From NCBI GenBank assembly GCA_902587025.1, contig CACIJJ010000002.1, positions 23,473 through 87,472 of the forward strand: 64,000 nt of DNA. The letters run 5' to 3'. The notes below the pieces were generated by a model. That model was not told the DNA's origin. It saw only the letters and a program-made list of their open reading frames with translations, and ran no database searches. This document shows, in pieces, positions 195 through 61,097 of this stretch. The translations under genes were made by a program, and so were the position numbers. Each line of letters starts with the position of its first letter. Positions within the stretch are counted from its first letter, which is position 1. This stretch comes from an uncultured Candidatus Actinomarina sp. GTDB taxonomy: Bacteria; Actinomycetota; Acidimicrobiia; Actinomarinales; Actinomarinaceae.

Positions 195-267
195 GGCCAG
201 ATAGCTCAGTCGGTAGAGCACTTGTCTGAAAAACAAGGGGTCGGCAGTTCGATTCTGCCTCTGGCCA
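195..267 (+). tRNA. tRNA-Phe (anticodon GAA)
   Basis: Acceptor GGCCAGA/TCTGGCC, D-arm GCTC-AGTCGGTA-GAGC, anticodon stem CTTGT/ACAAG with loop CTGAAAA, T-arm GGCAG-TTCGATT-CTGCC, discriminator A. Only 5 nt after tRNA-Asp. Confidence 0.9.
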
Positions 268-336
268 CAAATATCTATAAAAATTTGATTTGAACCTAAT
301 TTATGTTTAGATAATTTCAACTTTAAAATTTTTTGT

Positions 337-852
337 ATGTTTAACAATTATTTTTATCACACTGGAGAAGATGAGCCAATTGTAACTACTGCAGATTCTG
401 ACTTATTAGGGCTTCTTCTTGATTTTATAAAACATCCTTCAGTTGTCCACTTTCCAATTGCATATTCTGTAGCAATACCCTTTGTTGCTTTTGTAATTTA
501 TAAAGCTATTGCAAGTAAAACTATCAAGCTTTCTTGGTGGTACAGCGTCGTATTTACCCAATTTTTAGTATTTTTACTTCTACTTTTAGCTAGGTATACA
601 GGAAATTTGTTATATAGTGAACACGGATATGATTTGAATCCAACTAGTGAAATACAACTTCATTCAACGCTTGGGACATACTCAATTTATATTAATTTAG
701 TTCTTTTAATTGTCAGTATTCTTCCATTTTTACTTCAACGAAATCAAAAAAATCCTAAATTAATTATGAGAACTTACATTTTACTAGCTTTTGGAAATGC
801 TTTATTTATACTCTACATTGGCTACCTAGGTGGACAAATTGTTTGGGGATAA
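337..852 (+). CDS. hypothetical small polytopic membrane protein (cassette 1 cargo)
   Basis: 171-aa ORF with 4-5 hydrophobic segments. Sits between tRNA-Phe and the first tRNA-Phe 3'-half copy. Confidence 0.45.
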   Translation: MFNNYFYHTGEDEPIVTTADSDLLGLLLDFIKHPSVVHFPIAYSVAIPFVAFVIYKAIASKTIKLSWWYSVVFTQFLVFLLLLLARYTGNLLYSEHGYDLNPTSEIQLHSTLGTYSIYINLVLLIVSILPFLLQRNQKNPKLIMRTYILLAFGNALFILYIGYLGGQIVWG

Positions 853-1022
853 ACGCAAAATCATTTAAAAAATAAGCAATCAAAACCGATAAGAAATCGA
901 TAATCGCTAGTTGATGAAGTCTCTTTCAGTTACCACTCATTGACTTGAGGTTGGTCTCACTAACGAGCGATAATTGTAGATGAATAAGTTAAAATGGAAT
1001 AGGCTTGAAAGGTTTCCCCATA

Positions 1023-1067
1023 TCTGAAAAACAAGGGGTCGGCAGTTCGATTCTGCCTCTGGCCACA
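1023..1067 (+). repeat. att-like copy 1 of tRNA-Phe 3' half (identical to 223-267)
   Basis: tctgaaaaacaaggggtcggcagttcgattctgcctctggccaca matches the anticodon loop through the 3' end of tRNA-Phe exactly. Confidence 0.9.
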
Positions 1068-1093
1068 GGGTTTTTACCTAAAAAAAAATTAAG

Positions 1094-1687
1094 ATGAAAT
1101 TTTCAAAAAAAGAAGAATTTTTGAGGCAAATAGATCCTAAATTAAAAAAAATTATTGATAAGAATGGACATTTAATTTTTAAACCAAATAGGCAAAATCA
1201 ATTTGATACTCTAGTTGGAATCGTCATTTCACAATTTATATCAACAAAAGCTGCTAATTCTATTTTTACAAATATAAGGGAAAGCTTTAATTCAGAATAT
1301 CTATATCCCATACACTTTCAGAACATGTCTGTGAATAGGATAAAAAAATTAGGACTTTCCAGCAATAAAGCAAAAACTATTAAAGAGATTTCCGATCTTT
1401 ATTTGAAGCAAAATATAAAAGACTTGTCAGTTTTAAATGATAAACAACTTAACCAAACCCTATTATCAGTTTTTGGAATTGGGCCATGGTCATTGAATAT
1501 GTTTGAAATATTTTGTATTGGTAAATTAGATGTATTCTCGTCAAAAGATGCTGGTTTGAGGCAAGCAATGAATAATTTTGGAATGATAAAACCAGATAGT
1601 AATTGGGAATTGTATGATAAATACGCAAGCAAATGGTCTCCCTATAAATCAATTGCGTCGTTACATCTTTGGAAAACAGTAGATTAG
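1094..1687 (+). CDS. HhH-GPD superfamily DNA glycosylase (AlkA/3-methyladenine glycosylase II-like), cassette 2 cargo
   Basis: Helix-hairpin-helix motif followed by Asp: GIGPWSLNMFEIFCIGKLDVFSSKDAGLRQA. 197 aa. Confidence 0.6.
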   Translation: MKFSKKEEFLRQIDPKLKKIIDKNGHLIFKPNRQNQFDTLVGIVISQFISTKAANSIFTNIRESFNSEYLYPIHFQNMSVNRIKKLGLSSNKAKTIKEISDLYLKQNIKDLSVLNDKQLNQTLLSVFGIGPWSLNMFEIFCIGKLDVFSSKDAGLRQAMNNFGMIKPDSNWELYDKYASKWSPYKSIASLHLWKTVD

Positions 1688-1710
1688 ATAATTTTTACTT
1701 TAGATAATCT

Positions 1711-1754
1711 TCTGAAAAACAAGGGTCGGCAGTTCGATTCTGCCTCTGGCCACA
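1711..1754 (+). repeat. att-like copy 2 of tRNA-Phe 3' half (one G deleted)
   Basis: tctgaaaaacaagggtcggcagttcgattctgcctctggccaca. 43 of 44 positions shared with tRNA-Phe 224-267. Confidence 0.9.
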
Positions 1755-1855
1755 ATAAAAAGTACCTTTTCTATCCTTCTAAAGTATCTTGAAATTACAC
1801 AATTTAATTTTTTTAAAACCTTTAGTTCAATGCTTTTCTTTTTACAATAAATATT

Positions 1856-2617
1856 ATGGATCAATTAAAAAAAAATATTAACTTAAATAATTACAATAAC
1901 GAATTCTCAAAAGCCTTATTAGATTCGGAAAATATTTTTTTTGATATTTATCAACGTTGCAATTTTGAATTCGATTTAAATTGCGGGTCTTACTTATTTG
2001 ACGGTAAGAACTATGAGTACTCTTTAGAAATGTATGATAAACAAAAACTTTTATTTGAAATATCAAAACAAATTAATAGTGTTCTAGAAATTGGTGTATA
2101 TATGGGCCATAGTTTATTAATAATACTTTTGGCAAATCCTAATGTGACCTTTACTGGTATTGATATTGAAGAAAAATATTCAGCTAAAGCAATAAACCTC
2201 CTTTCAAGTTATTTCCCAAACTCAAAACTTGAATTTATACATTCAGATAGTCTTAAAGTATTAAAAAAAATAAATAAAAAGTATGATCTTTTCCATATTG
2301 ATGGTTCTCACAGCTCATTAATTATTTTTAAAGAACTTAAAAAAATATTCAAATTAGTAAATAATCAAAAATTAAAAGTTATTTTTGATGATGTTGATAC
2401 CTGTCAAAATGTAATAGATGCACTTGATAGGTCATTTAAAATTGAAAAAATTATTTATGCAGAAAGTAAATGGAGGAATTGTTATTTAGAGGTAGATTTA
2501 AACAAAAAAATAATTAAAAATTTATTCTTATTTCATTTCTTCTTTTATACAAGCAACTACAGTATTTTTTATAAGCAATATAAATACAAAATTAAAAAAC
2601 TAATTAAAAAAAGTTAA
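1856..2617 (+). CDS. class I SAM-dependent methyltransferase (O-methyltransferase family 3-like), cassette 3 cargo
   Basis: MTase motif I-like EIGVYMGHS, then GIDI and a HIDGSHS acidic motif. 253 aa. Confidence 0.45.
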   Translation: MDQLKKNINLNNYNNEFSKALLDSENIFFDIYQRCNFEFDLNCGSYLFDGKNYEYSLEMYDKQKLLFEISKQINSVLEIGVYMGHSLLIILLANPNVTFTGIDIEEKYSAKAINLLSSYFPNSKLEFIHSDSLKVLKKINKKYDLFHIDGSHSSLIIFKELKKIFKLVNNQKLKVIFDDVDTCQNVIDALDRSFKIEKIIYAESKWRNCYLEVDLNKKIIKNLFLFHFFFYTSNYSIFYKQYKYKIKKLIKKS

Positions 2618-2648
2618 AATTAAAAAGAGGCTTGGTCACAAAAGGATA

Positions 2649-3467
2649 ATGAAAAATAAAATAATATATTGGTACAAAAAATACGTTCCTAGAGGCATTC
2701 AAAAACTTTTTTACATATTAAAAAATATTGATGAATTAATCAAATTAGGACTTTTTAATTTTGAATTGAACAAAGATACAAGAATGTCACAACTAACTTG
2801 GACATATGCAAATTCAAGTAATGTTGACAAGAAGTTTGTTTCGAGAATCACTGAATATATAAATGCTGCAAATAATTTAGATTTACAATTTGATACAAGT
2901 ATTGAACCTGATAAATCTAGACAGTACGAATTTGAATATACAAATATGAATATGTTTCCAGGTGAACATTACAGAATGTTAGTAGGCATTATAAATACTG
3001 AAAATTTTAAAAATTTCATGGAAATAGGTACAGGTTCTGGTATTGCTTCTAAAGCTATTCTTAACAAGACTAATGCAGATATAAACACTTTTGATATTAT
3101 TCCATGGAGGGAAGACGATTCTCATCTTACAAAAGTAGAATTTACCAATAATAGGTTAACACAAATCACTGAAAATTTGTCAAACCCGCAATCTTTCAGG
3201 AAATATTCAGAACTAATTTCTAGCTCTGATTTGATTTTACTCGATGCAGATAAAAGCGGTACTTTTGAGGATTCACTACTTACTAAAATATCTACAATCT
3301 CCTTCGAGATCAAATATAGGCTCCTCTTCATTGATGATATAAGATACTTTTCAATGTACAAAATATGGAAAAAAATTCACAATCCAAAAATTGATCTTAC
3401 TTCATTTGGGCACTGGTCAGGAAGTGGACTAGTAGACATATCAAATGGCTTAATTTATAAAGACTAA
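2649..3467 (+). CDS. class I SAM-dependent methyltransferase-like protein, cassette 3 cargo
   Basis: FMEIGTGSGIAS (GxGxG motif I), then FDII, then LLDADKS. 272 aa. Confidence 0.45.
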   Translation: MKNKIIYWYKKYVPRGIQKLFYILKNIDELIKLGLFNFELNKDTRMSQLTWTYANSSNVDKKFVSRITEYINAANNLDLQFDTSIEPDKSRQYEFEYTNMNMFPGEHYRMLVGIINTENFKNFMEIGTGSGIASKAILNKTNADINTFDIIPWREDDSHLTKVEFTNNRLTQITENLSNPQSFRKYSELISSSDLILLDADKSGTFEDSLLTKISTISFEIKYRLLFIDDIRYFSMYKIWKKIHNPKIDLTSFGHWSGSGLVDISNGLIYKD

Positions 3468-3545
3468 TTTTTTTAGACAATCTATACTCAAACAGAATAA
3501 ATTATTATCAATTGAGATCAAATGTCTTTCCTCAATCAAAAAAGC

Positions 3546-3580
3546 AAGGAGTCGTCAGTTCGATTATGCCTTTGGCCACA
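3546..3580 (+). repeat. degenerate att-like copy 3 of tRNA-Phe 3' half
   Basis: caaggagtcgtcagttcgattatgcctttggccaca differs from the tRNA-Phe 3' half at 4 of 36 positions and ends with the same ggccaca. Confidence 0.7.
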
Positions 3581-3642
3581 ATAAACACATGCTATATTGA
3601 TATACAAAAATTCTACTAAGTCGATTGCTAAAATAAATACAT

Positions 3643-6138
3643 ATGAATCAAGTTAAAAAAAATAACATTTTTATTTTTTTAATAATATTTGTTGTAACTT
3701 TCATTCTCTTCTTATTTTTTAATTTATTTGATCAAAAAAATAATTTAGAAATTAATAAATTAGAAGAAAATATGTGTAAATATCACCATTCATCACTACT
3801 CAAAGAAAATTTTTCAGACACTTCAGTAGTTTTAGATATTCAATATAAAAGTAAAGGACTCTCCGTTTTTCCAGATTTAAAAAACATACTATGTGTCGGA
3901 AAAGTCATAGATTATGAGATTAATTTTTATGAGGAGGTTGGCAATTTAACTTATGTAAAACTTAATTTATATGTATTTACTCATGAAAGAATAATTAACC
4001 TATTAAAAATTTTCTTATTAATATTTATAGTTTATTTCCCAAAACTTCCATTAATTAATGACTCTTTTAGCAAAAATAATAAAATCGTCATTCTTGTATT
4101 TTTTTTACTTTTAATAAACCTAATTTTTAGTCTCAAATTTTCGATTGTTAATTTAATTATTGATATTATTTTTTACTCAACTCTGACAATATTTTTTGGA
4201 TCTGATAGTAAAAGATTTGATTTAGTAAACAAGAAACATAATATTTCCATCGATAGCCTCAGGGCTGTTGCAGTATTAGCAGTAATTTTTAATCACTTTG
4301 GATTTAAGTCTTTCGCAAGTGGCTATTTAGGTGTAGATTTATTTTTTGTTATATCTGGATATGTAATTACTAAAAAATATATACATATTAAAAATGATTC
4401 TTCTTTAAGCTTTTACGCAGAGTTTGTCTTTTTTAGATTAAAAAGAATTATTCCTAATCTAATATTTTTCATTACAATCACTTCAATTTTTGTATACCTT
4501 TTAGATTACAACTATAAAAATACACTTATCGGGGCACTTTTTGCTGTATTTGCAATTTCAAATATTTACTTTTACGTAAATTCACTTGATTATTTTTCAA
4601 TAGACTCTTCATTAAATTCATTTACCCATACATGGTCACTTGGAGTCGAAGAACAATTTTATTTAATTTTCCCTTTTCTAATTTATGCATTTGCAAGAAA
4701 TAAAATAAAAAAATCTTATTTTTTAATTCCTACTCTTTTATCTGTATTTTTGTTTTATTCAAGCACCACTACAAGTCCAAGTGCTACTTATTACTTAATA
4801 CAATATAGATTTTGGCAAATAGCATTAGGTTGCCTCTTAATAATATATAGTTTTGAATTAAAAAAATTAGCAAATCTAATACCAGTAAATGCTTTTTTAA
4901 TACCATTAATATTAGTTTTTACAATAAATACATCATATTCACGAAATTTAACATTGATATCAACCCTATTATTTGCGTTAATTATTTTAGGTATTGGAAA
5001 CTCTGACCAAAAGAGTAAAGTTCTAGAATCACCAAAACTAGCAACAATAGGTGTGTTGTCATATTCCCTATATTTATGGCATTGGCCAGTAATTAGTTTA
5101 TCTAAATGGACAAATTTTAAATTTATGACTTTTGAACTTCAGATGTTATTAATTATTACTCTTTCACTACTTTCTTTTAAATTCATAGAACAACCCTTTA
5201 GAAACATATCAATTGATAAGAGAAAAAAATATTTATTAATTCTATTTTCAACTACATTTTTGGTTTGGGTGTCTGTTTTTTCAATTACTAAATTTACAGA
5301 TAGAGACAATACATTGTCTGGAAACAATCCATACGTATTCGAGAAAAAAGATTACAAAAATATAGTAAATGAAATAGATTGCTATCACCCGAATGACATA
5401 GATAATGCTTTCGAGTCATGTATGGTTTATAAAAATGAAAAAGTAAATGTTTATCTGATTGGAGATAGTCATTCAACAAACCATTTTATTAGTTTAGAGC
5501 AAAACTTTAGAAATCAAGAAAATTATAACTTTAACCACTTAGTTGAGTGGGGGTTTATTAGAGATATCCAAGGGATTAAAGGTTGTGCACCAAGTCAAAA
5601 ATGCATTGAAAATAGTTTTGAAAAGCACTTAAATTTTTTTAGAGAAAACTTAGATAAAAATGATATTGTAATTTTTTCTTTTTCAAGAGATTGGTTCAAA
5701 ATAGATGGAGATTTACCCAGAAAAAATATAAATTCAAAGTTAACAAATTTTGAAAATAATTTTTCTAACTTAATTCAAACAATTAAAAACACTAACGCAA
5801 AAATCATCCTTTTAGATGACATACCTAAAACATGTAGCTCAAATGTAAATTTTTATAACGACATTATTGTGAAAGGCAATATCGATTCTTGTACGGTGTC
5901 AGAGGCTGTATCAATCAAAGATAGAAAAGAGCTCACAGATTTATATTCTAAATTTTTAGATGAAAATACAATTTACCTAGATCCTCACAAGGACTTCTGT
6001 AATGACGGCTTTTGTTCAATAATTGACTTAAAAACAAATGAAATAATGTTTTCAGATCTTTCGCCACATATATCGAAAAATGGACTAAAAATTATGGATG
6101 AATTTTGGAAAAAAAATTTTTACACATTAACTAAATGA
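3643..6138 (+). CDS. OafA-like O-acyltransferase (acyltransferase-3 membrane domain + C-terminal SGNH hydrolase domain) with ~200-aa N-terminal extension
   Basis: Acyltransferase-3 signature LRAVAVLAVIFNHFG...GYLGVDLFFVISGYVI, multiple TM segments, and a C-terminal GDSHS (SGNH) motif in YLIGDSHSTNHF. 831 aa. Confidence 0.7.
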   Translation: MNQVKKNNIFIFLIIFVVTFILFLFFNLFDQKNNLEINKLEENMCKYHHSSLLKENFSDTSVVLDIQYKSKGLSVFPDLKNILCVGKVIDYEINFYEEVGNLTYVKLNLYVFTHERIINLLKIFLLIFIVYFPKLPLINDSFSKNNKIVILVFFLLLINLIFSLKFSIVNLIIDIIFYSTLTIFFGSDSKRFDLVNKKHNISIDSLRAVAVLAVIFNHFGFKSFASGYLGVDLFFVISGYVITKKYIHIKNDSSLSFYAEFVFFRLKRIIPNLIFFITITSIFVYLLDYNYKNTLIGALFAVFAISNIYFYVNSLDYFSIDSSLNSFTHTWSLGVEEQFYLIFPFLIYAFARNKIKKSYFLIPTLLSVFLFYSSTTTSPSATYYLIQYRFWQIALGCLLIIYSFELKKLANLIPVNAFLIPLILVFTINTSYSRNLTLISTLLFALIILGIGNSDQKSKVLESPKLATIGVLSYSLYLWHWPVISLSKWTNFKFMTFELQMLLIITLSLLSFKFIEQPFRNISIDKRKKYLLILFSTTFLVWVSVFSITKFTDRDNTLSGNNPYVFEKKDYKNIVNEIDCYHPNDIDNAFESCMVYKNEKVNVYLIGDSHSTNHFISLEQNFRNQENYNFNHLVEWGFIRDIQGIKGCAPSQKCIENSFEKHLNFFRENLDKNDIVIFSFSRDWFKIDGDLPRKNINSKLTNFENNFSNLIQTIKNTNAKIILLDDIPKTCSSNVNFYNDIIVKGNIDSCTVSEAVSIKDRKELTDLYSKFLDENTIYLDPHKDFCNDGFCSIIDLKTNEIMFSDLSPHISKNGLKIMDEFWKKNFYTLTK

Positions 6139-50641: not shown

Positions 50642-50763
50642 TAATACTTTAATTTAAAACTTTGTTCAAAAACAGAAACTATTGTCGGATATATTCATGA
50701 ACAATTATTACACAAAATAAAAATTTAAATAAAAGTAGTGAAGTTTTTTTATAAATTTATTTT

Positions 50764-50807
50764 GTAGGCGCTATAGGATTTGAACCTTTGACTTCTTTTT
50801 TGTAAGG
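50764..50807 (-). repeat. degenerate att-like copy 3 of tRNA-Val 3' half
   Basis: gtaggcgctataggatttgaacctttgacttcttttttgtaagg has about 5 mismatches to tRNA-Val 55281-55324. It is followed by a degenerate agaaccatt...tttatgagttcattgat stretch resembling the long flank repeat. Confidence 0.6.
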
Positions 50808-50900
50808 ATAGAACCATTGACACCAGACTAACTTTATGAGTTCATTGATGTTTGTGATAACGACCCAATACTGAAAGTTTATTTTAACTTTGTGTGTCTT

Positions 50901-51030
50901 TTTTCTATATATATGTAAAGATTTTTGTACAAAATCAGCCAAAGTGCCAATTTTTCTATATATATGAAAAGATTTTTGTACAAAATCAGCCAAAGTGCCA
51001 ATTTTTCTATATATATGTAAAGATTTCTCA
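50901..51030. repeat. ~51-bp tandem repeat, about 2.5 copies
   Basis: ttttctatatatatgtaaagatttttgtacaaaatcagccaaagtgccaat appears at 50901-50951 and 50952-51002, with a partial third copy running into att copy 2. Confidence 0.8.
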
Positions 51031-51220
51031 AAAAACTCTTATGAGCGCTACAGGATTTGAACCTGTGACTTCTTCCTTGTAAGGAAAGAACCATTAAATA
51101 CTAGGTAGTATCAGAAAGTATCAGTTTATAGAGTCAATGAACTTAAGCTTACACAAAAAGATATCAGAGGCTATCAGAGAGTATCTACAGTTTTAGAAAA
51201 TTTTGGTGTCTTTTAGGTGT
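51008..51220. repeat. ~215-bp direct repeat, copy A (att plus flanks, TATCAGA motifs, GTGTCTTTT doublet)
   Basis: About 90% identical to 51798-52003. Contains tatatatgtaaagatttct, the tRNA-Val 3' half, aaagaaccattaaatactaggtagta, 5 TATCAG(A) motifs, and ggtgtcttttaggtgtctttt. Confidence 0.8.
51046..51084 (-). repeat. att-like copy 2 of tRNA-Val 3' half (exact)
   Basis: gcgctacaggatttgaacctgtgacttcttccttgtaagg matches 55285-55324 exactly. Confidence 0.9.
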
Positions 51221-51734
51221 CTTTTATAATTTTTTGTGCCTGAGATCTCACAGCTTTTCTTTCATCATTCTTTAACTGTCTTGCGATACTTATAACATTT
51301 GACTTCAATATTTCGTCTGAATTGGATAATTTTTCTAGAAGTTTTAAACCTTGAGCAAGTATCATCCAGTCTTTACTATTTTCCACCCAACTCATTGCAT
51401 TTTTACTAATAACTTTGTATTCTTTATCGTCAAAATATGAAATGAAATCATAATAAATTGTAATAAGCCCAAGTTTGACTACATTATGTTCAGACTCTGA
51501 AAACTCATCTATGAATCTTTTTTTATTTTCAACAAAAATTTGATTATTACCTTTTATTATTCTTTTTGTTGCATTCATAGCTCTCATTGCAACTAAAGAA
51601 TTGTTAGAAAAAAAACATAAGAATAATTTATCAATTTCTTTTATATTATTTTGAATATGTTCTACTACTTTTAATGTCTCTCCAAGTGAGTTTTGTTTTC
51701 CTTTGCTTAACTCAAATTCAAAATCTAATTCCAT
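51213..51734 (-). CDS. hypothetical protein (alpha-helical, HEAT/ARM-like?), cassette cargo
   Basis: 173-aa ORF flanked on both sides by the roughly 215-bp direct repeats. No recognisable motif. Confidence 0.4.
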   Translation of the reverse strand: MELDFEFELSKGKQNSLGETLKVVEHIQNNIKEIDKLFLCFFSNNSLVAMRAMNATKRIIKGNNQIFVENKKRFIDEFSESEHNVVKLGLITIYYDFISYFDDKEYKVISKNAMSWVENSKDWMILAQGLKLLEKLSNSDEILKSNVISIARQLKNDERKAVRSQAQKIIKDT

Positions 51735-51797
51735 AACTAAATGTATATTACCAAATGAAACTCTACAGAGGTGGTGTCTTCTAGGTGTCTTTTGGGT

Positions 51798-52003
51798 ATA
51801 TATATAAAGATTTCTGATAAACCCTTGTGGGCGCTACAGGATTTGAACCTGTGACTTCTTCCTTGTAAGGAAAGAACCATTAAATACTAGGTAGTACCAG
51901 AGAGTATCAATTTATAGAGTCAATGAACTTAAGCTCTTACAAAAAGATATCAGAAGTTATCAGATAGTGTCTACAGTTATAGAAAATTTGTGTGTCTTTT
52001 GTG
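51798..52003. repeat. ~215-bp direct repeat, copy B
   Basis: tatatataaagatttctgataaacccttgtg, then an exact tRNA-Val 3' half (51828-51870), then aaagaaccattaaatactaggtagtaccagagagtatcaatttatagagtcaatgaactt...tgtgtgtcttttgtgtgtcttt. Confidence 0.8.
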
Positions 52004-52049
52004 TGTCTTTTTATTTTCATACATTATTGCTAGCTATTAATATTTAGAT

Positions 52050-52361
52050 ATGTTCATAAAAAAGAAATCAAAAAAGTTAAAAGTAGAATTTAAAAATATA
52101 CAGACCGATCTTTTAAAAATTAATAAGAAGATTTGTGATCTTTACCAAAAAGTAAATCATCTTAACCTAGAAGAGTTGAGAGAAGAGATAAAAGATTTAC
52201 TAGAGTTTTCAGAAATACAAATAATTAATGAACACAAAGGTTACGATAATTGCTTTACAACATCAAATGGTAAGGAAAATATAATCAATAGGCCAGCTTT
52301 TGTTGATAAATATGGAAATTGTCTTGTACAGGGCTACAGAGAAGTAAAAGAAAAAATCTAA
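52050..52361 (+). CDS. hypothetical small protein, first gene of Hsp70-like operon
   Basis: 103 aa, Lys-rich. Stop lies 5 nt before the ATG of the next gene. Confidence 0.4.
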   Translation: MFIKKKSKKLKVEFKNIQTDLLKINKKICDLYQKVNHLNLEELREEIKDLLEFSEIQIINEHKGYDNCFTTSNGKENIINRPAFVDKYGNCLVQGYREVKEKI

Positions 52362-52366
52362 CTTTA

Positions 52367-54619
52367 ATGAGCAAACAGGCTTTAGGTTTTGATTTTGGTA
52401 CTACTAACTGTACTGTGTCAATTTTTGATAGTGAAGAAGGAATTGCAAAAACACTTCCTATCTCAAATTTTTCAGAGTCAAAGAAAAAGAGTTTAGCTAA
52501 TCAATCATTATTTCCATCAAAAGTTGGTCTTAATAATGATTTTGAATATGTATTTGGTGATGATACAAAAAAATGTGAGCGAGATTTTGTATGGGACAAT
52601 TCCAAAAGATTACTAGAACACAACACTCCAATTTATAGGGGAGGAGTTCATAAAAAACCTATCTGGGTTGCAATAGGTATCATTGCTGGAGTTTTTAAGG
52701 AATTAAAAAATTTATCGATAAAAACTTCATCACCTATGGTAATTACGGTTCCTGCAAACTCTTATAGTGTGCAAAGAAGTCTTACTAGATTAGCTGCTGA
52801 AGCATTTAACTTTAATGTAGATCAATTAGTTTCTGAACCATGCGCAGCAGCTTTAGGTTGTTTCAACTACATTAAAAACTTAAAACATATTTTGATAGTT
52901 GATGTAGGAGGTGGAACAACAGATATTGCTTTATTAGAAAATGATTTTGGGACCTTAAAAGAGATTGAAATTGAAGGCTTGAAAAGATTTGGTGGAATAA
53001 ATATTGATCAAAAACTATTCGACACTTATAAATACGAAGTTGAATTATCGACTGATTCAGAAACATTACTCTTTAGAGATTTACTGGAAGACGTAAAAAT
53101 AGAACTATCAACTAAAAAGAAATCTAAGTTAATTTTTAAAGATCAGGTAATCGAAATTACTAGAGATAGTATTGAAAAATTAATAGAAAAAGATATTGAA
53201 AATTTAGATAAAACTATTGATAGAGTACTTAAAAAGGGAAATGTCGAAGTAAAAAATATAGAGGCTGTTTTACCTATTGGAGGCTCATCTAATATTCCTG
53301 CAATAAGAAATCTTTTGAAAAAAAAGTTTAAATCCAGGTTTATTAATCTTAATTTTGAAGAATCAATAACTGCTGTTGCAAATGGAGCAGCAACAGCTTC
53401 AGCCATAAATGCAAAAATTATTGATAATCTAAGTTTTAAACAGTGTCTAGAACATAGTGTTGGCCTTAGGGTGTGGAGCGGCACTAAAGAAAATAAGATT
53501 TTTAAAGCAATACTTGAAAAAGGATCAGTATTTCCAGCATCAGCAGTAGAAACATTTATCTCGGATACAGATGAATCTGTAGTTGCTTTGTATGAAAGTA
53601 CTTCAGGTAAATTAAAAAATAATGATACAAAATTAATTATTGAAAAAAGAATAAAAACTGGTGTTATGCATGTTGATGTTGAGCTCACCTATGATGACGA
53701 TGGAAAAATAGATATTAAGACATACAACATAAATAAAGGAGAACGTGGAAAATTAGGAGACTTGGGAGACAGTACTGAGGATTCTCAAGGGTATATAAAG
53801 AATTTGCAATCAAAATCTCGTAAGCAAGGAATGGATTTAAAAATTGACAATATAAATTACATAGATTCACAATTAACCCAAAAAAAATTAAAAGAATGGT
53901 CGAATGAGTTTTTAGGGAAGTATAAAAAATATAAAAAAGTATCAAAAAAAGTTAAAAATATATTCAAAAAAGAATTTAAAGATGAATTTGTTTCAATTAA
54001 TAAGGAAAATATTTCTGAAGCAATATTTAAAGTGAGAACAGAACTCGATTTTGGTAGTACTAATGATGCATTTATGTTCGCAAGAGGTATTTTGAAACAT
54101 TCTTTAAGGGTGGTGTTTAATATTGCAGGTTATGAAAAACTTCATCACTTTCAAAGTATTCATAAATTATTAGGAGAAAGAGACGTTGTGTATCAAACAA
54201 CACAGAAGCTTTTACCAGAACAACCTCTTGAAGATATTAGGTGGTTAATAAAAGTTCTTCAGAAATCTAGATATTTAAAGAACTTAGGACACACAAATAC
54301 TCAAGAAGTTAGAGACAGTCTTGAATCATTAAGAACAATCTTAAATAAATTTAGTCATGGTGTTCGTTCAAGTTTTTTTGGATTATTTACAGATTCATTA
54401 GATGAATACGATTCTTCAATTGAAAGTAACATACTAAATGCTGTTTATAAAGAATCTAAATATACACCCCAGGATGTTGTCCTACTGGCCTCTAACGTAG
54501 TCTATTTATTAACTTCTCTAATTAATACAGAAGAATATAAGGGAAAAGATAGAGAAAATCTTATGAAAATGCTAGAAAGTATGCTTGCTTTAGAACAGAC
54601 ATATAAAGATGATTTTTAA
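52367..54619 (+). CDS. atypical Hsp70-family ATPase (DnaK-like NBD + SBD-beta-like region + ~290-aa unique alpha-helical C-terminal domain)
   Basis: LGFDFGTTNCTVSIF (phosphate-1), ILIVDVGGGTTDIALL (phosphate-2), VLPIGGSSNIPAIRNLL (adenosine). No EEVD. The C-terminal half is unrelated to the DnaK lid. The track ORF starts at 52319, but the internal ATG at 52367 follows the upstream stop. Confidence 0.65.
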   Translation: MSKQALGFDFGTTNCTVSIFDSEEGIAKTLPISNFSESKKKSLANQSLFPSKVGLNNDFEYVFGDDTKKCERDFVWDNSKRLLEHNTPIYRGGVHKKPIWVAIGIIAGVFKELKNLSIKTSSPMVITVPANSYSVQRSLTRLAAEAFNFNVDQLVSEPCAAALGCFNYIKNLKHILIVDVGGGTTDIALLENDFGTLKEIEIEGLKRFGGINIDQKLFDTYKYEVELSTDSETLLFRDLLEDVKIELSTKKKSKLIFKDQVIEITRDSIEKLIEKDIENLDKTIDRVLKKGNVEVKNIEAVLPIGGSSNIPAIRNLLKKKFKSRFINLNFEESITAVANGAATASAINAKIIDNLSFKQCLEHSVGLRVWSGTKENKIFKAILEKGSVFPASAVETFISDTDESVVALYESTSGKLKNNDTKLIIEKRIKTGVMHVDVELTYDDDGKIDIKTYNINKGERGKLGDLGDSTEDSQGYIKNLQSKSRKQGMDLKIDNINYIDSQLTQKKLKEWSNEFLGKYKKYKKVSKKVKNIFKKEFKDEFVSINKENISEAIFKVRTELDFGSTNDAFMFARGILKHSLRVVFNIAGYEKLHHFQSIHKLLGERDVVYQTTQKLLPEQPLEDIRWLIKVLQKSRYLKNLGHTNTQEVRDSLESLRTILNKFSHGVRSSFFGLFTDSLDEYDSSIESNILNAVYKESKYTPQDVVLLASNVVYLLTSLINTEEYKGKDRENLMKMLESMLALEQTYKDDF

Positions 54620-55196
54620 AAAAAGAAAAATTCAAAAAATTATTTCACTTCACAAAGATGAGATAGCTGATTTAGAAGATGAATATAGGGAAAAACTAAA
54701 ACTTTTGAAAATTGAGGCTGATAATCATTTGGATAAAGAAATTACCAAATATAAAGAAAAATTAGCAAAAGAACAGAATCAAAAAGCTGATTCTGAAAAG
54801 CAAAAGCTACAAACTAAACATGATAAAGAAATCAAACATTTGATCAACGAATATGAAAAACAAAAAATCTTAGAACTTGAAAAGTTAGAAAAAAAATTTC
54901 GAGACTCTGATGTTTTCACAAAGAAGTTACAAAAGTATTTTTCTGATGAACTTGGCAGAGAGTATCAAGATGTTTCATTTAAAGAGCTTGAAGAAGATTT
55001 GAAAAATGATTTAAAAGAGATTGTATATGAAATTAACGATTTAAATAAGCAAGTTGATGATAGCAAGGATAAACTTTTACAATTTAATGAACTTGCTAAA
55101 GAAATAAATTATTTAGAAGAAGAAATAGGAATTAAACGTAATGAACTTTATGAAATCAAGCAGGCAATCAAAGAACTAAAAAAAGAAGGTAATTAA
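54609..55196 (+). CDS. coiled-coil protein (Lys/Glu-rich), third gene of Hsp70-like operon
   Basis: 195 aa with heptad-like KE-rich repeats throughout. Overlaps the preceding gene by 11 nt. Confidence 0.45.
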   Translation: MIFKKRKIQKIISLHKDEIADLEDEYREKLKLLKIEADNHLDKEITKYKEKLAKEQNQKADSEKQKLQTKHDKEIKHLINEYEKQKILELEKLEKKFRDSDVFTKKLQKYFSDELGREYQDVSFKELEEDLKNDLKEIVYEINDLNKQVDDSKDKLLQFNELAKEINYLEEEIGIKRNELYEIKQAIKELKKEGN

Positions 55197-55220
55197 TTTT
55201 TGCATATTCAAAAAGTAATT

Positions 55221-55279
55221 TGTGTGTCTTTTGTGTGTCTTTTTACTATATATATGTAAAGATTTCTGAAAAACCCTTG
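55221..55279. repeat. conserved tRNA-Val 3' flank (GTGTCTTTT doublet + tatatatgtaaagatttctgaaaaacccttgtg)
   Basis: Same sequence module that precedes each att copy at 51775-51827 and, less well, at 51008-51045. Confidence 0.7.
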
Positions 55280-55353
55280 TGGGCGCTACAGGATTTGAAC
55301 CTGTGACTTCTTCCTTGTAAGGGAAGCGCTCTGCCAGACTGAGCTAAGCGCCC
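55280..55353 (-). tRNA. tRNA-Val (anticodon TAC)
   Basis: The reverse complement folds as GGGCGCT-TA-GCTC-AGTCTGGCA-GAGC-G-CTTCC-CTTACAA-GGAAG-AAGTC-ACAGG-TTCAAAT-CCTGT-AGCGCCC-A. Confidence 0.85.
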
Positions 55354-57015: not shown

Positions 57016-57708
57016 ATGTATACGTTAGACGTAATTGTACCATTTTTTAATGAAGAAGTTTTCCTCAAAGAGTCTGTTGGTAGGTTGTTAAAAACTAGTA
57101 TTCATACAAATATATATTTAGTTGACAATAATTCTGATGATAATTCTCCAGAAATTGCAAAAAAATTATCAAAAGACAGAGAAGATGTTCATTATGTAAA
57201 AACACCAGAAGTGTCTGGTAAGGGATTTGGAATACAAACAGTAATGCCATATTTAAAATCGTCTCATGTTGTGATCCACGATGCAGACCTTGAATACTTT
57301 CCAGAAGATATTATTGAAATGTTTGATTTAGCAAAACAAAATCAAAAATCTTTAATTCTAGGTTCACGATTTATTGGATCAAAAATAAGACAAAATATCT
57401 ATTTGAGAACATTTATAGCAAATAGAGTTATGTCATTATTTTTTTCTTTAGTAAATTTTTACAGAATTTCAGATGTAGCATCATGTTATAAATTGATGCC
57501 CGTAGAGTTTCTAAAAAATATAGACCTTAAAGAAAAGGGATTTTCAATAGAGATTGAACTACTCTCCAAATTTTTAAAATTCAACAGATCTGTTTTAGAA
57601 GTACCTATTTCATATGAAGGCAGATCATATGCAGATGGAAAAAAGATAAAAGCAACAGATGGGTTACAGTATTTGTTTAATACAATTAAATACAGGTTTA
57701 TAAATTAA
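57016..57708 (+). CDS. GT2 glycosyltransferase, polyprenol-phosphate sugar synthase (DPM1/ArnC-like)
   Basis: LDVIVPFFNEEVFL, then YLVDNNSDDNS, then HDADLEY. Confidence 0.75.
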   Translation: MYTLDVIVPFFNEEVFLKESVGRLLKTSIHTNIYLVDNNSDDNSPEIAKKLSKDREDVHYVKTPEVSGKGFGIQTVMPYLKSSHVVIHDADLEYFPEDIIEMFDLAKQNQKSLILGSRFIGSKIRQNIYLRTFIANRVMSLFFSLVNFYRISDVASCYKLMPVEFLKNIDLKEKGFSIEIELLSKFLKFNRSVLEVPISYEGRSYADGKKIKATDGLQYLFNTIKYRFIN

Positions 57709-60700
57709 CTACAGCCTAAAGAGTTTCCGCAGTTTAGGCATTTATAGCAAGAGCCATTTCTTATTGTTATGTGTCCACAATCTGGACAAGCAGGAGCGTC
57801 TCCCATCATATCACCAAGAACTTCTTGCACTGTTGTAACGGAATTTGAAGTAGCCTCAGTTTTGTCTAAAGCTTCAACCTCTTTAACTTTTGTAACAAAC
57901 TGCACTTCTTTTACTTCGTTTGAAACTTCTGTAGTTTTAGAGCCGCTTGGAGACTCTGTTTCTTGTACCTCGCTTACAGATTCAGCTATTTCCTCAACCG
58001 GAGCTGAAGGAGATTCTTGAACAGGAGCTGAAGGAGATTCTTGAACAGGAGCTGAAGGAGATTCTTCAGGTGGGTTCTGTACTATATCAGTTCTGTTTAG
58101 ATATTCTAAACCTAGGGCTCTAAAGACATAATCTACAATTGAGTTGCTCATTTTTATATTTTCATGTCCTTCAACCATTCCTCGTGGTTCAAATGTTTGA
58201 AAAGTGAAAGTATCAACGAATTCTTCAAGAGGAACACCATATTGAAGACCTTTAGATACAGCAATGGCAAAACATCCAAGAACTCCTTTGAGAGTCGCAC
58301 CCTCTTTTGCGATATCTATGAAAACTTCACCAAGTGTTCCATCTGGATATTCTCCCGTTCTTAGATATACTTTATGACCTGCGATTTTTGCTTCTTGAGT
58401 CCAACCTTCTCTTCTTTCAGGCAATAAAAACCTTGGTCTTGTTGTTCCTGCATAGGCTTTTGTAGGACTTGTTCCAGCAGGATAGTTCCCATGCATTAAC
58501 ATTGATTCACTTTCAATTATTTCAGAGACTTGCGGATCAGTTTCTTCCGATTCACCATCATCTGAAGATGCAGACAGTGGTTGAGATGCTTTTGATCCAT
58601 CTCTATAAATTGCTATTGCTTTAATACCAAGACCTGCAGATTCGAAATAGCAGTTTTCTATATCTTCTATCGTTGCTTCATTAGGCATATTTACAGTTTT
58701 TGAAATCGCACCAGAAATAAACGGTTGCGCCGCAGCCATCATTCTGACATGACCCATATAATGAATAAATCTTTTTCCATCTTTTCCACATTTGTTAGCA
58801 CAATCAAAAACACTAAGATCTTCATCTTTAAGATGAGGTGCTCCCTCAATTGTTTGAGTTCCACAAATAAATTTATTTGCTTCTGCGATTTCAGTCTTAG
58901 TAAATCCTAGTTTTTCTAAAAGATTGAAATCAAAAGATGTATATTCTTCCTCTTGGATATCAAGTCTTTGCATTGTTTCTTCACCAACCACAAAGACATT
59001 AAATGCATGTTGAATTTCAAAAGCACCTGGTAAAGAATTTTCAATATTTTCAATATCTTGATCATTCAAGCCTTTATCTTTTAGTGTTTCTTTATTAACA
59101 AATGGAGAACCATCTAGTGACATTGATCCAATAACATATTGAATTATTTCTTCAGTTTGTTGATTGGTGTAACCAAGTGCGCTCAATGCTGGACCAATTG
59201 ATTGGTTTGCTATCTTCATATATCCACCACCAGCTAGCTTCTTAAATTTCATTAGTGCAAAGTCTGGTTCTACGCCTGTTGTATCACAATCCATTAGCAA
59301 ACCAATTGTTCCTGTTGGAGCCAGTACGGTTGCTTGTGCATTTCTATATCCATGTTTCTCACCTAATTCAAGTGCTCCATCCCATGAATCTTGTGCACCT
59401 TTTAGTAAATCATCAGGACACAAGTCTTGATCTATTGGTAGTAAGTCATGACTGATTCCAACATAATTATCAGAATCATAAGCTGCTTTTCTGTGGTTGC
59501 CCATAACACGAAGCATGTTGTCTTTGTTTTCTGAATATTTTGGAAATGGTCCGACTATACTTGCCATTTCTGCAGAGGCTTTATAAGCTTCACCAGTCAA
59601 CATTGCTGTCAAAGCACCTGCAATAGCTCTACCTAATTCTGAGTCATACGCAATACCTTTTCTCATCAGAAGGGATCCAAGGTTTGCATATCCCAGACCT
59701 AGTGTTCTGTAGTCATAAGATCCTTGAGCGATTTCTTTTGAAGGAAACTGGGCCATCTCAACTGATATTTCTAGCACTACAGTCCAGATTCTTAGTGCAT
59801 GCTTATATGATGCAACATCAAATACCTGGTTATCATCATCATAAAACTTAACTAAGTTCAAACTTGCTAGGTTACAGGCAGTATTATCTAAAAATAAGTA
59901 TTCAGAGCATGGATTTGATGCTCTAATTTGTCCACCTGCTGGGGAAGTGTGCCACTCATTAATGGTTGTGTTGAATTGAACACCAGGGTCTGCACATCTC
60001 CAAGCAGCATCTGCTATTTTGTTCCATAATTCTCTTGCTTTTACAGTTTTCATTGTTGAACCATCAGTTCTAGCTGTAAGCTCCCAATCTCCATCTGTCT
60101 CGAGTGCTTTTATAAATTCATTTGGTACTCTTACAGAGTTATTTGAGTTTTGACCAGACACAGTAGCATATGCTTCGCCGTTATAGTCTGATGGATACCC
60201 AGCATTGATTAACGCTCTCGCCTTATCTTCTTCAATAGCTTTCCACTCAATAAAATCTTCAATATCTGGATGGTCAAGATCAAGAATAACCATTTTTGCA
60301 GCTCTTCTTGTTGTTCCACCTGATTTAATTGCACCTGCTGCTCTATCGCCAATTTTTAGAAATGACATAACACCTGAGGAGACACCACCACCAGAAAGTT
60401 TTTCTCCCTCACCTCTTAGGTTTGAAAAGTTTGTACCTGTTCCAGACCCAAACTTAAATAATCTTGCTTCTTTTACCCAAAGGTCCATAATTCCACCTTC
60501 GTTGACAAGATCATCATCAATTGATTGAATGAAACAAGCGTGCGGTTGTGGTCTTGAGTAGGAGTCTTCTCCTGGCGTTAATTCACCTGTACTCGGATCA
60601 ACATACCAAAAACCTTGTGGTTTCCCAGTTAATCCATATTTATAATTTAGACCTGTGTTAAACCACTGCGGACTGTTTGGAGCTGCCATCTGGGTTGCAA

Positions 60701-61097
60701 GCATATACTTTAATTCATCTTCAAAAGCCTGAGCATCTTCTGTTGATGCAAAATATCCAGTCTCTTCACCCCAGTGTCTCCATGTCTCTGCAAGTCGGTT
60801 GAATACCTGTTTTGATGATGTTTCAGGTCCTAGAACCAAATCACCATTGTCATCTTTAAGTTCATTTCCGTTTTCATCTGTCTGAGGAACACCGGCTTTT
60901 CTAAAATATTTTGAAACCATTATGTCAGTAGCTACTTGAGACCAGGATGAAGGGATCTCAACGTCATTCATTTCGAAAACTATTGAGCCATCTGGGTTAG
61001 TTATCTTTGAACTTCTCTTTTCCCAAACTATGTCTTTGTAAGGATCACCAGGTGAGGTATATTTCCTATTTATCTTGAGCCCTGTATTTTTTGCCAC
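57705..61097 (-). CDS. nrdJ: class II (adenosylcobalamin-dependent) ribonucleotide reductase
   Basis: 1130 aa. RNR catalytic core blocks (SNPCSEY, LGLGYANLG). C-terminal Cys-rich zinc-ribbon CPDCGH...CYKCLNCG. Intragenic ESPSAPVQ x3 linker. Confidence 0.9.
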   Translation of the reverse strand: MAKNTGLKINRKYTSPGDPYKDIVWEKRSSKITNPDGSIVFEMNDVEIPSSWSQVATDIMVSKYFRKAGVPQTDENGNELKDDNGDLVLGPETSSKQVFNRLAETWRHWGEETGYFASTEDAQAFEDELKYMLATQMAAPNSPQWFNTGLNYKYGLTGKPQGFWYVDPSTGELTPGEDSYSRPQPHACFIQSIDDDLVNEGGIMDLWVKEARLFKFGSGTGTNFSNLRGEGEKLSGGGVSSGVMSFLKIGDRAAGAIKSGGTTRRAAKMVILDLDHPDIEDFIEWKAIEEDKARALINAGYPSDYNGEAYATVSGQNSNNSVRVPNEFIKALETDGDWELTARTDGSTMKTVKARELWNKIADAAWRCADPGVQFNTTINEWHTSPAGGQIRASNPCSEYLFLDNTACNLASLNLVKFYDDDNQVFDVASYKHALRIWTVVLEISVEMAQFPSKEIAQGSYDYRTLGLGYANLGSLLMRKGIAYDSELGRAIAGALTAMLTGEAYKASAEMASIVGPFPKYSENKDNMLRVMGNHRKAAYDSDNYVGISHDLLPIDQDLCPDDLLKGAQDSWDGALELGEKHGYRNAQATVLAPTGTIGLLMDCDTTGVEPDFALMKFKKLAGGGYMKIANQSIGPALSALGYTNQQTEEIIQYVIGSMSLDGSPFVNKETLKDKGLNDQDIENIENSLPGAFEIQHAFNVFVVGEETMQRLDIQEEEYTSFDFNLLEKLGFTKTEIAEANKFICGTQTIEGAPHLKDEDLSVFDCANKCGKDGKRFIHYMGHVRMMAAAQPFISGAISKTVNMPNEATIEDIENCYFESAGLGIKAIAIYRDGSKASQPLSASSDDGESEETDPQVSEIIESESMLMHGNYPAGTSPTKAYAGTTRPRFLLPERREGWTQEAKIAGHKVYLRTGEYPDGTLGEVFIDIAKEGATLKGVLGCFAIAVSKGLQYGVPLEEFVDTFTFQTFEPRGMVEGHENIKMSNSIVDYVFRALGLEYLNRTDIVQNPPEESPSAPVQESPSAPVQESPSAPVEEIAESVSEVQETESPSGSKTTEVSNEVKEVQFVTKVKEVEALDKTEATSNSVTTVQEVLGDMMGDAPACPDCGHITIRNGSCYKCLNCGNSLGCS

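Follow-up and report, generated by a model that had tools for sequence, protein, structure and literature searches.

Within the window analysed here, a 64,000-nt stretch of DNA from an uncultured Candidatus Actinomarina sp. (GenBank assembly GCA_902587025.1, contig CACIJJ010000002.1, positions 23,473 to 87,472), positions 50745-55353 most likely form a tandem array of three non-autonomous integrative gene cassettes behind an intact tRNA-Val gene (anticodon tac, 55279-55353, minus strand; called by ARAGORN, Rfam tRNA score 73.8 bits), which would be their integration target. Counted outwards from the tRNA gene, the cassettes are E1 (51871-55259), E2 (51085-51807) and E3 (50808-51020). Our preferred reading, to which we give a probability of about 0.6, is that they belong to arrays whose junctions resemble phage attachment sites (attP), with integrase arm sites outside, excisionase-type operators inside and the enzymes supplied in trans. 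On this anatomy we provisionally file them as non-autonomous, att-flanked cassettes with tyrosine-integrase-type attachment sites.

Each inter-cassette junction is a module of 238 bp from outer edge to outer edge (e.g. 51774-52011), which matches the size of the 240-bp lambda complex (abstract of PMC4880445). Read along the plus strand, the module begins with a pair of 11-bp direct repeats, followed by a 14-16 nt AT-rich spacer and a 63-nt block identical to the tRNA locus, made up of a 19-nt trailer with a T-run and the 3' part of the tRNA as far as the anticodon loop. After another 14 nt come three hexamer boxes of the TAYCAG type at intervals of exactly 10 nt, a spacer of 37 nt whose centre (TCAATGAAC) is conserved, three further boxes with the same 10-nt spacing and, 17-18 nt beyond these, a second 11-bp repeat pair. 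The box arrays occur on one side of the tRNA block only, which we call the P arm, and all boxes have the same orientation; the repeat pairs (doublets) flank each tRNA fragment on both the P and the P' side and keep to the same strand throughout. A junction built in this way would look like the expected attP of a circularised cassette. The 63-nt block, designated O, is common to the tRNA locus (55260-55322, minus strand) and all cassette junctions, being found at the tRNA and at three junctions in the window and at more than 160 junctions elsewhere. The anticodon stem-loop CTTCC-N7-GGAAG (55310-55326; CTTCC TTGTAAG GGAAG on the plus strand) sits exactly at the end of the tRNA identity.

Doublets of the GTGTCTTTT type lie on the plus strand at 51205-51225, 51773-51793, 51991-52011 and 55223-55243, with a single unit at 50893-50902. 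The GTGTCTTTT motif was seen eight times in the window against 0.83 expected, and the doublet pattern four times against 0.01; no shuffle reached either count. A first-pass annotation of this DNA had described a tandem doublet that caps each long repeat and also adjoins the genuine tRNA, and this is borne out at 51205-51225, 51991-52011 and 55223-55243, with the doublet at 51773-51793 as a fourth that it did not list. It had also placed five TATCAG(A) motifs in each repeat; the motifs are where it located them, but the count was too loose. The P arm of E2 (51085-51204, plus strand) has four exact copies (51109, 51119, 51162 and 51172) together with TATCTA at 51182 and a sixth box, TACTAG at 51099, which that annotation had overlooked, and that of E1 (51871-51990, plus strand) has two exact copies (51948 and 51958) and four degenerate boxes (TACTAG 51885, TACCAG 51895 and TATCAA 51905 as the proximal triplet, and TGTCTA 51968 at the end of the distal one). 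The two arms are duplicates with 91% identity and therefore are not independent evidence.

Evidence from other genomes was obtained with a scan for the doublet plus tRNA, using one genome per species, which gave 12 loci (loci are numbered with the prefix L below). Eleven were Candidatus Actinomarina/OCS155 single-cell amplified genomes (SAGs) and metagenome-assembled genomes (MAGs), and the twelfth (L032, a Bacteroidales MAG) was left out as unrelated, with a different, higher-GC tRNA and its own GTGTCTTTT doublet. In marine metagenomes the core/P-arm junction pattern matched at least 120 contigs. The listed metagenome matches and the single-cell genomes together provided a set of 122 P arms, none identical to another, and the full architecture is present in 108. 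Counting from the core, these 108 arms have the degenerate box TA[TC][CT][AT][GA] at offset 14 in 94%, 24 in 82%, 34 in 83%, 77-78 in 87%, 87-88 in 93% and 97 in 42%; the outer pair begins at a distance of 116-120 nt in 101 of them. Doublets of the P' side end 63-69 nt away from the O core motif in every one of the 54 cassettes measured. Mean information was 1.66 bits in the columns of the proximal boxes and 1.12 bits in the 4-nt linkers, and at least three or four arm families could be distinguished whose spacers differ and whose boxes are kept. It is only because of the 10-nt phasing and the fixed positions in 108 non-identical homologous arms that the boxes are convincing. Whatever the arm family, the sequence ceases to match the tRNA inside one 5-nt interval on the 5' strand of the anticodon stem, which fits site-specific exchange at the anticodon loop and not general homologous recombination.

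The outer 11-bp units are hypervariable: at least 21 variants were found, differing mainly at three positions of a TGTGNGKN core (for example TGTGCGGTT, GGTGTCTTTT, TGTGTGTGTAA, TGTGGGTCAAA, TGTGGGTCTTT, TGTGCGTGTAA, GCGGGTCTTTT and TGGGCGTCATT). Within one cassette, the P and P' pairs had a mean similarity of 0.857 (51 non-redundant complete cassettes), against 0.638 ± 0.015 and a maximum of 0.693 when the pairing was permuted (n = 2000); for the pairs on either side of a junction, which come from neighbouring cassettes, similarity was only 0.707. Since the pairs match across the cargo and not across the junction, a target-site duplication of a junction element is ruled out, and a miniature inverted-repeat transposable element or a repeat of the repetitive extragenic palindrome (REP) kind with such a duplication was rejected, the junction value lying near the random one. 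Cassettes with near-identical arms can carry different 11-mers, the four copies being identical within the cassette. In the TGTGCGGTT class the spacer bases are side-specific at many independent loci, the P side having TT where the P' side has AT or AC, so the match between the ends is not a by-product of copying one end onto the other. The matched pairs look like the outcome of selection for one recognition sequence per cassette, and the combination of near-constant boxes with variable pairs suggests a common accessory factor and diversified integrase arm specificities.

This anatomy was compared with that of characterised attachment sites. In cluster K mycobacteriophages, two 11-bp repeat pairs flank the core, and among close relatives a position differs in all four repeats together with substitutions in the integrase N-terminus; in L5 and Giles the pairs are in direct orientation (PMC3203893). 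The Actinomarina cassettes share with these phages an actinobacterial host, a core in a tRNA-type gene, 11-bp pairs on both sides of the core and co-varying arm copies, whereas the phages have the integrase gene next to attP and the cassettes have no integrase and far more arm variants (at least 21). As for the boxes, directionality factors occupy direct repeats at helical-turn intervals, binding head-to-tail, and Apl of phage 186 recognises 6-bp operators, five of which lie at attP and three adjacent ones of which are required for efficient binding (PMC7498355); P2 Cox has six boxes at attP (PMC3936717). In P2 and 186, one arm bears five or six short directionality-factor operators at 10-11 bp spacing (PMC3448106, PMC3936717, PMC7498355), and the cassettes share with these phages the order pair, core, six boxes, pair, a likeness of layout. 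P2 and 186 differ in being gammaproteobacterial phages with their own int and cox or apl, and the P2 cox-boxes have mixed orientation where those of Actinomarina are uniform.

Because the layout is that of phage attP sites, we assign the doublets to predicted integrase arm binding and the TAYCAG boxes to a putative excisionase-type or host accessory factor. Of the features that mark the attP of a heterobivalent tyrosine integrase (lambda, P2 or L5 type), the cassettes have a shared core block, arm pairs on both sides and phased operators on one arm; a cognate integrase gene in the element was not found. The first-pass annotation had taken the short repeat arrays together as arm-type sites of integrases or excisionases, which agrees with the attP-like layout, the positional conservation and the co-variation of the ends. 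Where we depart from it is that the two motif types probably have different roles, the doublets fitting integrase arm-type sites and the TATCAG boxes operators of an excisionase or accessory factor.

The anticodon loop is a known sublocation class of tRNA-targeting integrases, and this is the basis on which we place the crossover. In the mechanism that we propose, the outer 11-bp pairs (the GTGTCTTTT doublets in the window) would be bound by the N-terminal domain of a heterobivalent tyrosine integrase, and the six TAYCAG-type boxes, arranged as two triplets with helical-turn spacing on one arm between the core and the outer pair, would be operators of excisionase-type or accessory bending proteins. 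Strand exchange would take place at or adjoining the anticodon stem-loop, and the incoming cassette would supply a new tRNA 3' half and trailer, so that the tRNA stays intact and older cassettes are displaced outward. Since the cassettes have neither integrase nor excisionase genes, both proteins would have to act in trans, with integrase-carrying Actinomarina phages or a still-unseen element as their likeliest source.

The distribution of E2, a cassette of 0.73 kb without a mobility gene, indicates recent horizontal spread. Its DNA (51096-51824) is 96.5-98.8% identical in L030, L033-L035, L037, L064, L082 and L128, and its 173-aa open reading frame (ORF) 96-99% identical in 8 other loci, whereas nrdJ of these E2-bearing genomes is 79-94% identical to nrdJ of the window. 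The NrdJ protein of L037 is 97% identical to that of the window; L030 (SAG AG-919-G14) shares the E2 cassette (~97%) with a nrdJ identity of only 79.4%. E2 adjoins the tRNA in L030, L033, L035 and L037 and takes second place in the arrays of the window, L034 and L128, a variable rank that fits the insertion of newcomers at an intact tRNA.

Complete units (n = 72) had a median length of 1331 bp (range 442-5212), several of them without cargo. The longest cargo ORF was on the tRNA strand in 45 of 54 complete cassettes (loci L030-L161), above the 61% strand bias of the island given in the preprint 'Actinomarina, resolved'. In the P' arm, the minus strand has a promoter-like TTTTCA-16-TATAGT (55272 to 55245) directed into the cassette, and cassettes may be expressed from the junction as in integrons. 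Cargo-less cassettes were seen in L130 around 5937 and in L041 at 5651-5871 (oriented coordinates); in such forms the P arm and doublet are followed nearly directly by the P' arm and tRNA fragment, or the doublets are 200 nt apart. In L030 (2869-4420, oriented coordinates), a composite cassette runs from a doublet through a 300-aa ORF, a doublet and the 173-aa E2 ORF to a third doublet, the middle one having no adjoining tRNA fragment; this may reflect a deletion between same-class doublets or hint at doublet recombination.

Genes for recombination were searched for at several levels. Across the window, none of 47 ORFs matched an integrase, resolvase or transposase family in Pfam. For the related loci and the window together, phmmer with five seeds (XerD, lambda Int, Cre, gamma-delta resolvase and Hin) was run on all 941 ORFs with a length of 80 aa or more; its best E-value was 0.043, in a pairwise search that is less sensitive than profiles, and a regular expression for recombinase motifs had no match. 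Neither the window nor ~600 kb of related loci thus yielded a recombinase gene. No small ORF recurred between cassettes as a cassette-borne excisionase would, and no integrase pseudogene fragments were seen in the 72 complete units. Recombinase-free cassettes agree with the published statement, in the passages searched, that identifiable mobile elements are absent from Actinomarinales except for three insertion sequences (PMC7771536).

Two phages in the literature are candidate sources of a trans-acting enzyme. In a phage fragment from the Mediterranean (uvMED-GF-U-MedDCM-OCT-S39-C91), an integrase gene occurs together with a 43-bp att that is identical to Ca. Actinomarina tRNA-Val (PMC3861242), and a 24-kb prophage lies in tRNA-Val of SAG AH-324-A03 (PMC7771536). 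Searches of IMG/VR with the doublet, the doublet plus tRNA, the core/P-arm junction and three tRNA-core segments returned nothing related, and the attP module, the tRNA-Val gene and the tRNA-Asp/Phe region matched only phage tRNA genes in the GenBank phage collection. The first-pass annotation had suggested looking for the same motif arrays beside integrase genes in phages and other elements; nothing of the kind was found in the viral contigs of IMG/VR, and no integrase adjoins the arrays of the window. The IMG/VR matches to the doublet (L001, L004, L007, L010 and L015) are unrelated phage contigs of other GC content, each with an array of its own in which three to five GTGTCTTTT-like units recur about every 11 bp. 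These arrays may represent coding repeats, or else arm-type or iteron sites that belong to other elements.

Several observations weigh against cassettes moved by enzymes in trans. When set against local composition, the comparison by which the first-pass annotation had proposed to judge the motifs, the GTGTCTTTT doublets stand out, but the TATCAG cluster in the window alone is not statistically exceptional. When the window was shuffled with its dinucleotides preserved, 64 of 100 shuffled sequences had some hexamer with four or more copies in a 90-nt stretch, and the real sequence has such clusters of two other hexamers as well. Three phased TATCAG boxes occur at 73 loci in IMG/VR, which are mostly perfect 10-bp microsatellites and have no association with integrases, one locus having an integrase-like ORF nearby. 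Contigs of circular or excised cassettes were not seen, the terminal overlaps of four contigs being assembly breaks at the tRNA repeat. With no integrase or excisionase found, the binding protein cannot be named; the Pfam search covered the ORFs of the window only, and the papers on the two phages do not state which tRNA-Val isoacceptor is used. Finally, at least 21 arm variants would imply many integrase specificities in a lineage reported to be nearly free of mobile elements.

Such points leave room for another explanation, which we consider unlikely: the modules would be fossil attP arms of decayed prophages or other elements that have lost all protein binding, and the conserved ~240-bp modules on both sides of a cassette would serve as portable homology for RecA-mediated replacement or insertion of cassettes. 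It would account for the missing recombinase in the searched ORFs and the missing circular forms, for degenerate or truncated modules (E3 and several truncated arms) and for chimeric cassettes with unmatched ends, and recombination in flexible islands is favoured by Rodriguez-Valera's group (PMC7771536). What speaks against it is that the boxes are conserved above their linkers with spacing fixed within a few nucleotides in 108 arms, that the four hypervariable 11-mer copies are identical per cassette where neutral relics would drift apart, and that the tRNA identity ends at the same few nucleotides in all arm families. The absence of integrase pseudogene fragments from the 72 complete units also goes against decayed elements.

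Less probable still is a second, integron-like reaction in which the doublets themselves are crossover sites that load cargo onto, and release it from, an empty attP platform, with a variable core that, like the overlap region of tyrosine recombinases, must match between partners; we judge this proposal to be improbable. Between cassettes of one doublet class, homology breaks off within 1-4 nt of the doublet's inner edge, some cassettes are empty (L130, L041 and E3), the L030 composite has an internal doublet without a tRNA fragment, and the cassettes are small (median 1.3 kb) and co-oriented in 45 of 54 cases; doublets that are hypervariable yet matched are also what homology-dependent strand exchange would produce. 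On the other hand, known core sites of recombinases are inverted repeats around a spacer and not tandem direct repeats, the side-specific spacer bases of P and P' doublets disfavour repeated crossover inside them, and no recombinase was found. Internal doublets and empty cassettes are explained equally well by deletion between 20-bp direct repeats.

That the motifs are transcriptional signals of the cargo genes (promoters, operators, terminators or elements of untranslated regions) we hold to be very improbable. The co-orientation of cargo with the tRNA in 45 of 54 cassettes and the promoter-like site in the P' arm would suit this view, as would the frequent double use of directionality-factor sites as operators (PMC7498355). 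However, the region has fewer promoter-like sites than shuffled sequence (16 vs 25.9), the E1 cargo is on the strand opposite the P'-arm promoter, and Rfam matches are to tRNA only. Identical doublets moreover flank the cargo at its 5' and its 3' end, whichever way it is oriented, and also occur on cargo-less cassettes, a pattern that regulation would not account for. Chance clustering in AT-rich DNA, doubled by a recent duplication, could draw on the 64 of 100 shuffles and the 91% identity of the window copies but is refuted by the comparative data, since the doublets (4 vs 0.01 expected), an end matching far beyond permutations and the fixed box and doublet positions in 108 non-identical arms from many genomes and oceans leave it next to no probability.

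Returning to att-flanked cassettes mobilised in trans, we compared them with known classes of non-autonomous and tRNA-associated elements. The cis-mobilizable elements (CIMEs) related to integrative and conjugative elements (ICEs) of Streptococcus are bounded by att sites, lack int and xis, lie in tandem at a tRNA-type site and presumably use the integrase of another element; they are few, large and clearly derived from a known ICE with its integrase at hand. Like them, the Actinomarina cassettes have attL/attR-type flanks with arms and no recombination genes; unlike them, they number in the hundreds, measure 0.4-5 kb and have many arm specificities and no known helper. They resemble integron cassettes in being small, mostly single-gene, mostly co-oriented and without a recombinase of their own, with the newest beside the attachment site, and differ in their tRNA-gene target and 238-bp arm-type junction module. 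An integron array was rejected, the junction repeats being direct with no inverted-repeat pair reported in the region, hence without attC hairpin sites, and no intI or attI adjoining; the neighbours of tRNA-Val are a membrane protein, a glycosyltransferase and NrdJ. An Xer-dependent element (IMEX) was rejected as well, the target being a tRNA gene and not the chromosomal dif, with its 28-bp site. By eye, the P' spacer of some cassettes resembles the XerD arm of the B. subtilis dif sequence, a lead that was dropped, the spacer not being conserved across cassettes.

The first-pass annotation had pointed to the 'tycheposon'-like elements of marine cyanobacteria, and this did not hold. Tycheposons of Prochlorococcus have an integrase and a replication module and are reported at seven tRNA/tmRNA genes, tRNA-Val not among them (10.1101/2020.12.28.424599), whereas the host here is an actinobacterium, the target is tRNA-Val(tac), and neither an integrase nor a replication or hallmark module is present in E1, E2, E3 or the 72 complete units; all the relatives are moreover Ca. 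Actinomarina/OCS155. The likeness is confined to a streamlined marine host, tRNA-proximal islands, tandem integrations separated by partial tRNAs, and adaptive or defence cargo.

The array also bears on a published island. The flexible island fGI1 of Actinomarinales, which encodes cell-envelope glycosylation and is bounded by tRNAs, contains cassettes and direct repeats of tRNA fragments (Lopez-Perez et al. 2020, PMC7771536) and is the same object at coarse scale; the window spans it from tRNA-Asp/tRNA-Phe (115-268) to tRNA-Val, with glycosyltransferases, sugar dehydratases and methyltransferases in its interior. The searched passages of that paper mention repeats of tRNA fragments only, with no 238-bp module, phased boxes or matched 11-bp pairs, and do not state explicitly that the cassettes lack recombinases. 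The idea of an undescribed integrative element, raised in the first-pass annotation, is thus right for the arm anatomy and not for the cassettes and tRNA-fragment repeats, which had already been reported. Judged by the literature searched, what is new is the attP-like module with its phased boxes, the matching of hypervariable pairs and the complete lack of recombinase genes. The mechanism of insertion into this hypervariable, tRNA-bounded island is left open in those passages of PMC7771536 and explicitly still to be identified in 'Actinomarina, resolved' (2026). The anatomy gives testable parts, namely the 238-bp module, a predicted crossover at the anticodon loop, predicted arm sites and operators, and external enzymes, and in viromes and complete genomes the matched hypervariable pairs are a marker by which cassettes could be linked to their helper integrases. 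Should movement in trans be correct, a genome without mobile-element genes of its own would still exchange envelope and defence genes across species, as illustrated by E2, which is 97% identical where the core gene nrdJ is 79% identical.

A broader interpretation can be offered only tentatively. Actinomarina is one of the smallest free-living cells and is reported to lack mobile elements. Its only major island might be built by a tRNA-anchored, integron-like cassette system in which the 11-bp pairs, with their variants of at least 21 kinds, act as an interchangeable address code. It is doubtful, though conceivable, that hundreds of recombinase-less cassettes would each bear a complete attP, and with similar reserve we suggest that the code might be read by diversified, trans-acting and probably phage-borne integrases, or by homology during cargo swapping at the doublets. 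If true, the system would be a previously unrecognised route of gene sharing in streamlined ocean bacteria.

The remaining features of the array are described from the tRNA gene outwards. In E1, the P' spacer TACTATATATATGTAA (55244-55259, plus strand) is followed by the P'-side arm pair TGTGTCTTTT G TGTGTCTTTT, two 11-bp units (55223-55243, plus strand), which match exactly the P-side pair of the same composition (51991-52011, plus strand). The E1 cargo (52050-55196, plus strand) consists of three ORFs without a recombinase, encoding a protein of 103 aa (52050-52361), a 750-aa Hsp70/actin-fold ATPase (52367-54619; PF00012, E = 1e-31) whose C-terminal extension is long and helical, and a coiled-coil protein of 195 aa (54609-55196). 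Its matches to PADLOC were weak (PDC-M61B, 1.7e-5; Avs2 and LmuB fragments), and the three genes may be a defence or stress module. No homologue of the cargo was found in the other related loci collected, and a look-up of the E1 protein in public assemblies gave exact copies on three metagenome contigs only, each under 2 kb.

The E2/E1 junction contains O copy 1, with the tRNA-Val 3' part and trailer (51808-51870, minus strand), preceded by a spacer (51794-51807) and the P'-side arm pair of E2, GGTGTCTTCT A GGTGTCTTTT (51773-51793, plus strand), with one mismatch; the P-side pair is GGTGTCTTTT A GGTGTCTTTT (51205-51225, plus strand). The single 173-aa ORF that is the cargo of E2 (51213-51734, minus strand) has no family match. 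O copy 2 (51021-51084, minus strand) forms the E3/E2 junction, and O copy 3 (50745-50807, minus strand) is the most diverged and oldest tRNA-Val fragment, at the distal end of the array. E3 (plus strand) is degenerate, with no ORF or cargo and a divergent P arm that lacks TATCAG and has the lone TGTGTCTTTT unit at 50893-50902. A 51-bp unit with P'-arm sequence (CTATATATATGTAAAGATTT...) is present in E3 in about three tandem copies (50900-51052), the third of which is 67% identical and extends into O copy 2. As repeats, the tRNA 3' halves form family D3 (50762-50818, 51039-51095 and 51825-51881). Two of the fragments score in Rfam as tRNA positions 10-63 (32.4 bits, above the gathering score), and the matched spans (51050-51106 and 51836-51892) comprise the tRNA fragment and the first 22 nt of the P arm, whose start may have descended from a once-complete tRNA-Val-like sequence. 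Rfam found no structured RNA in the region besides these tRNA-like matches.

At the other end of the island, a like array lies at tRNA-Phe(gaa) (195-3580; intact gene 195-268). Partial 3' copies of this tRNA at 1023-1067, 1710-1754 and 3536-3580 (family D5), the first of which is called a second tRNA-Phe by ARAGORN (987-1066), separate single-gene cassettes for a DUF2231 membrane protein, an HhH-GPD glycosylase and methyltransferases. The tRNA-Phe arms are unrelated to the tRNA-Val arms. CGATAA is found at 889-894 and 900-905, with 11-nt spacing, and once more at 968-973. Near the tRNA-Val end, the NrdJ-like class II ribonucleotide reductase (57705-61097, 1130 aa) has three tandem ESPSAPVQ/E repeats before its cysteine-rich C-terminal end.

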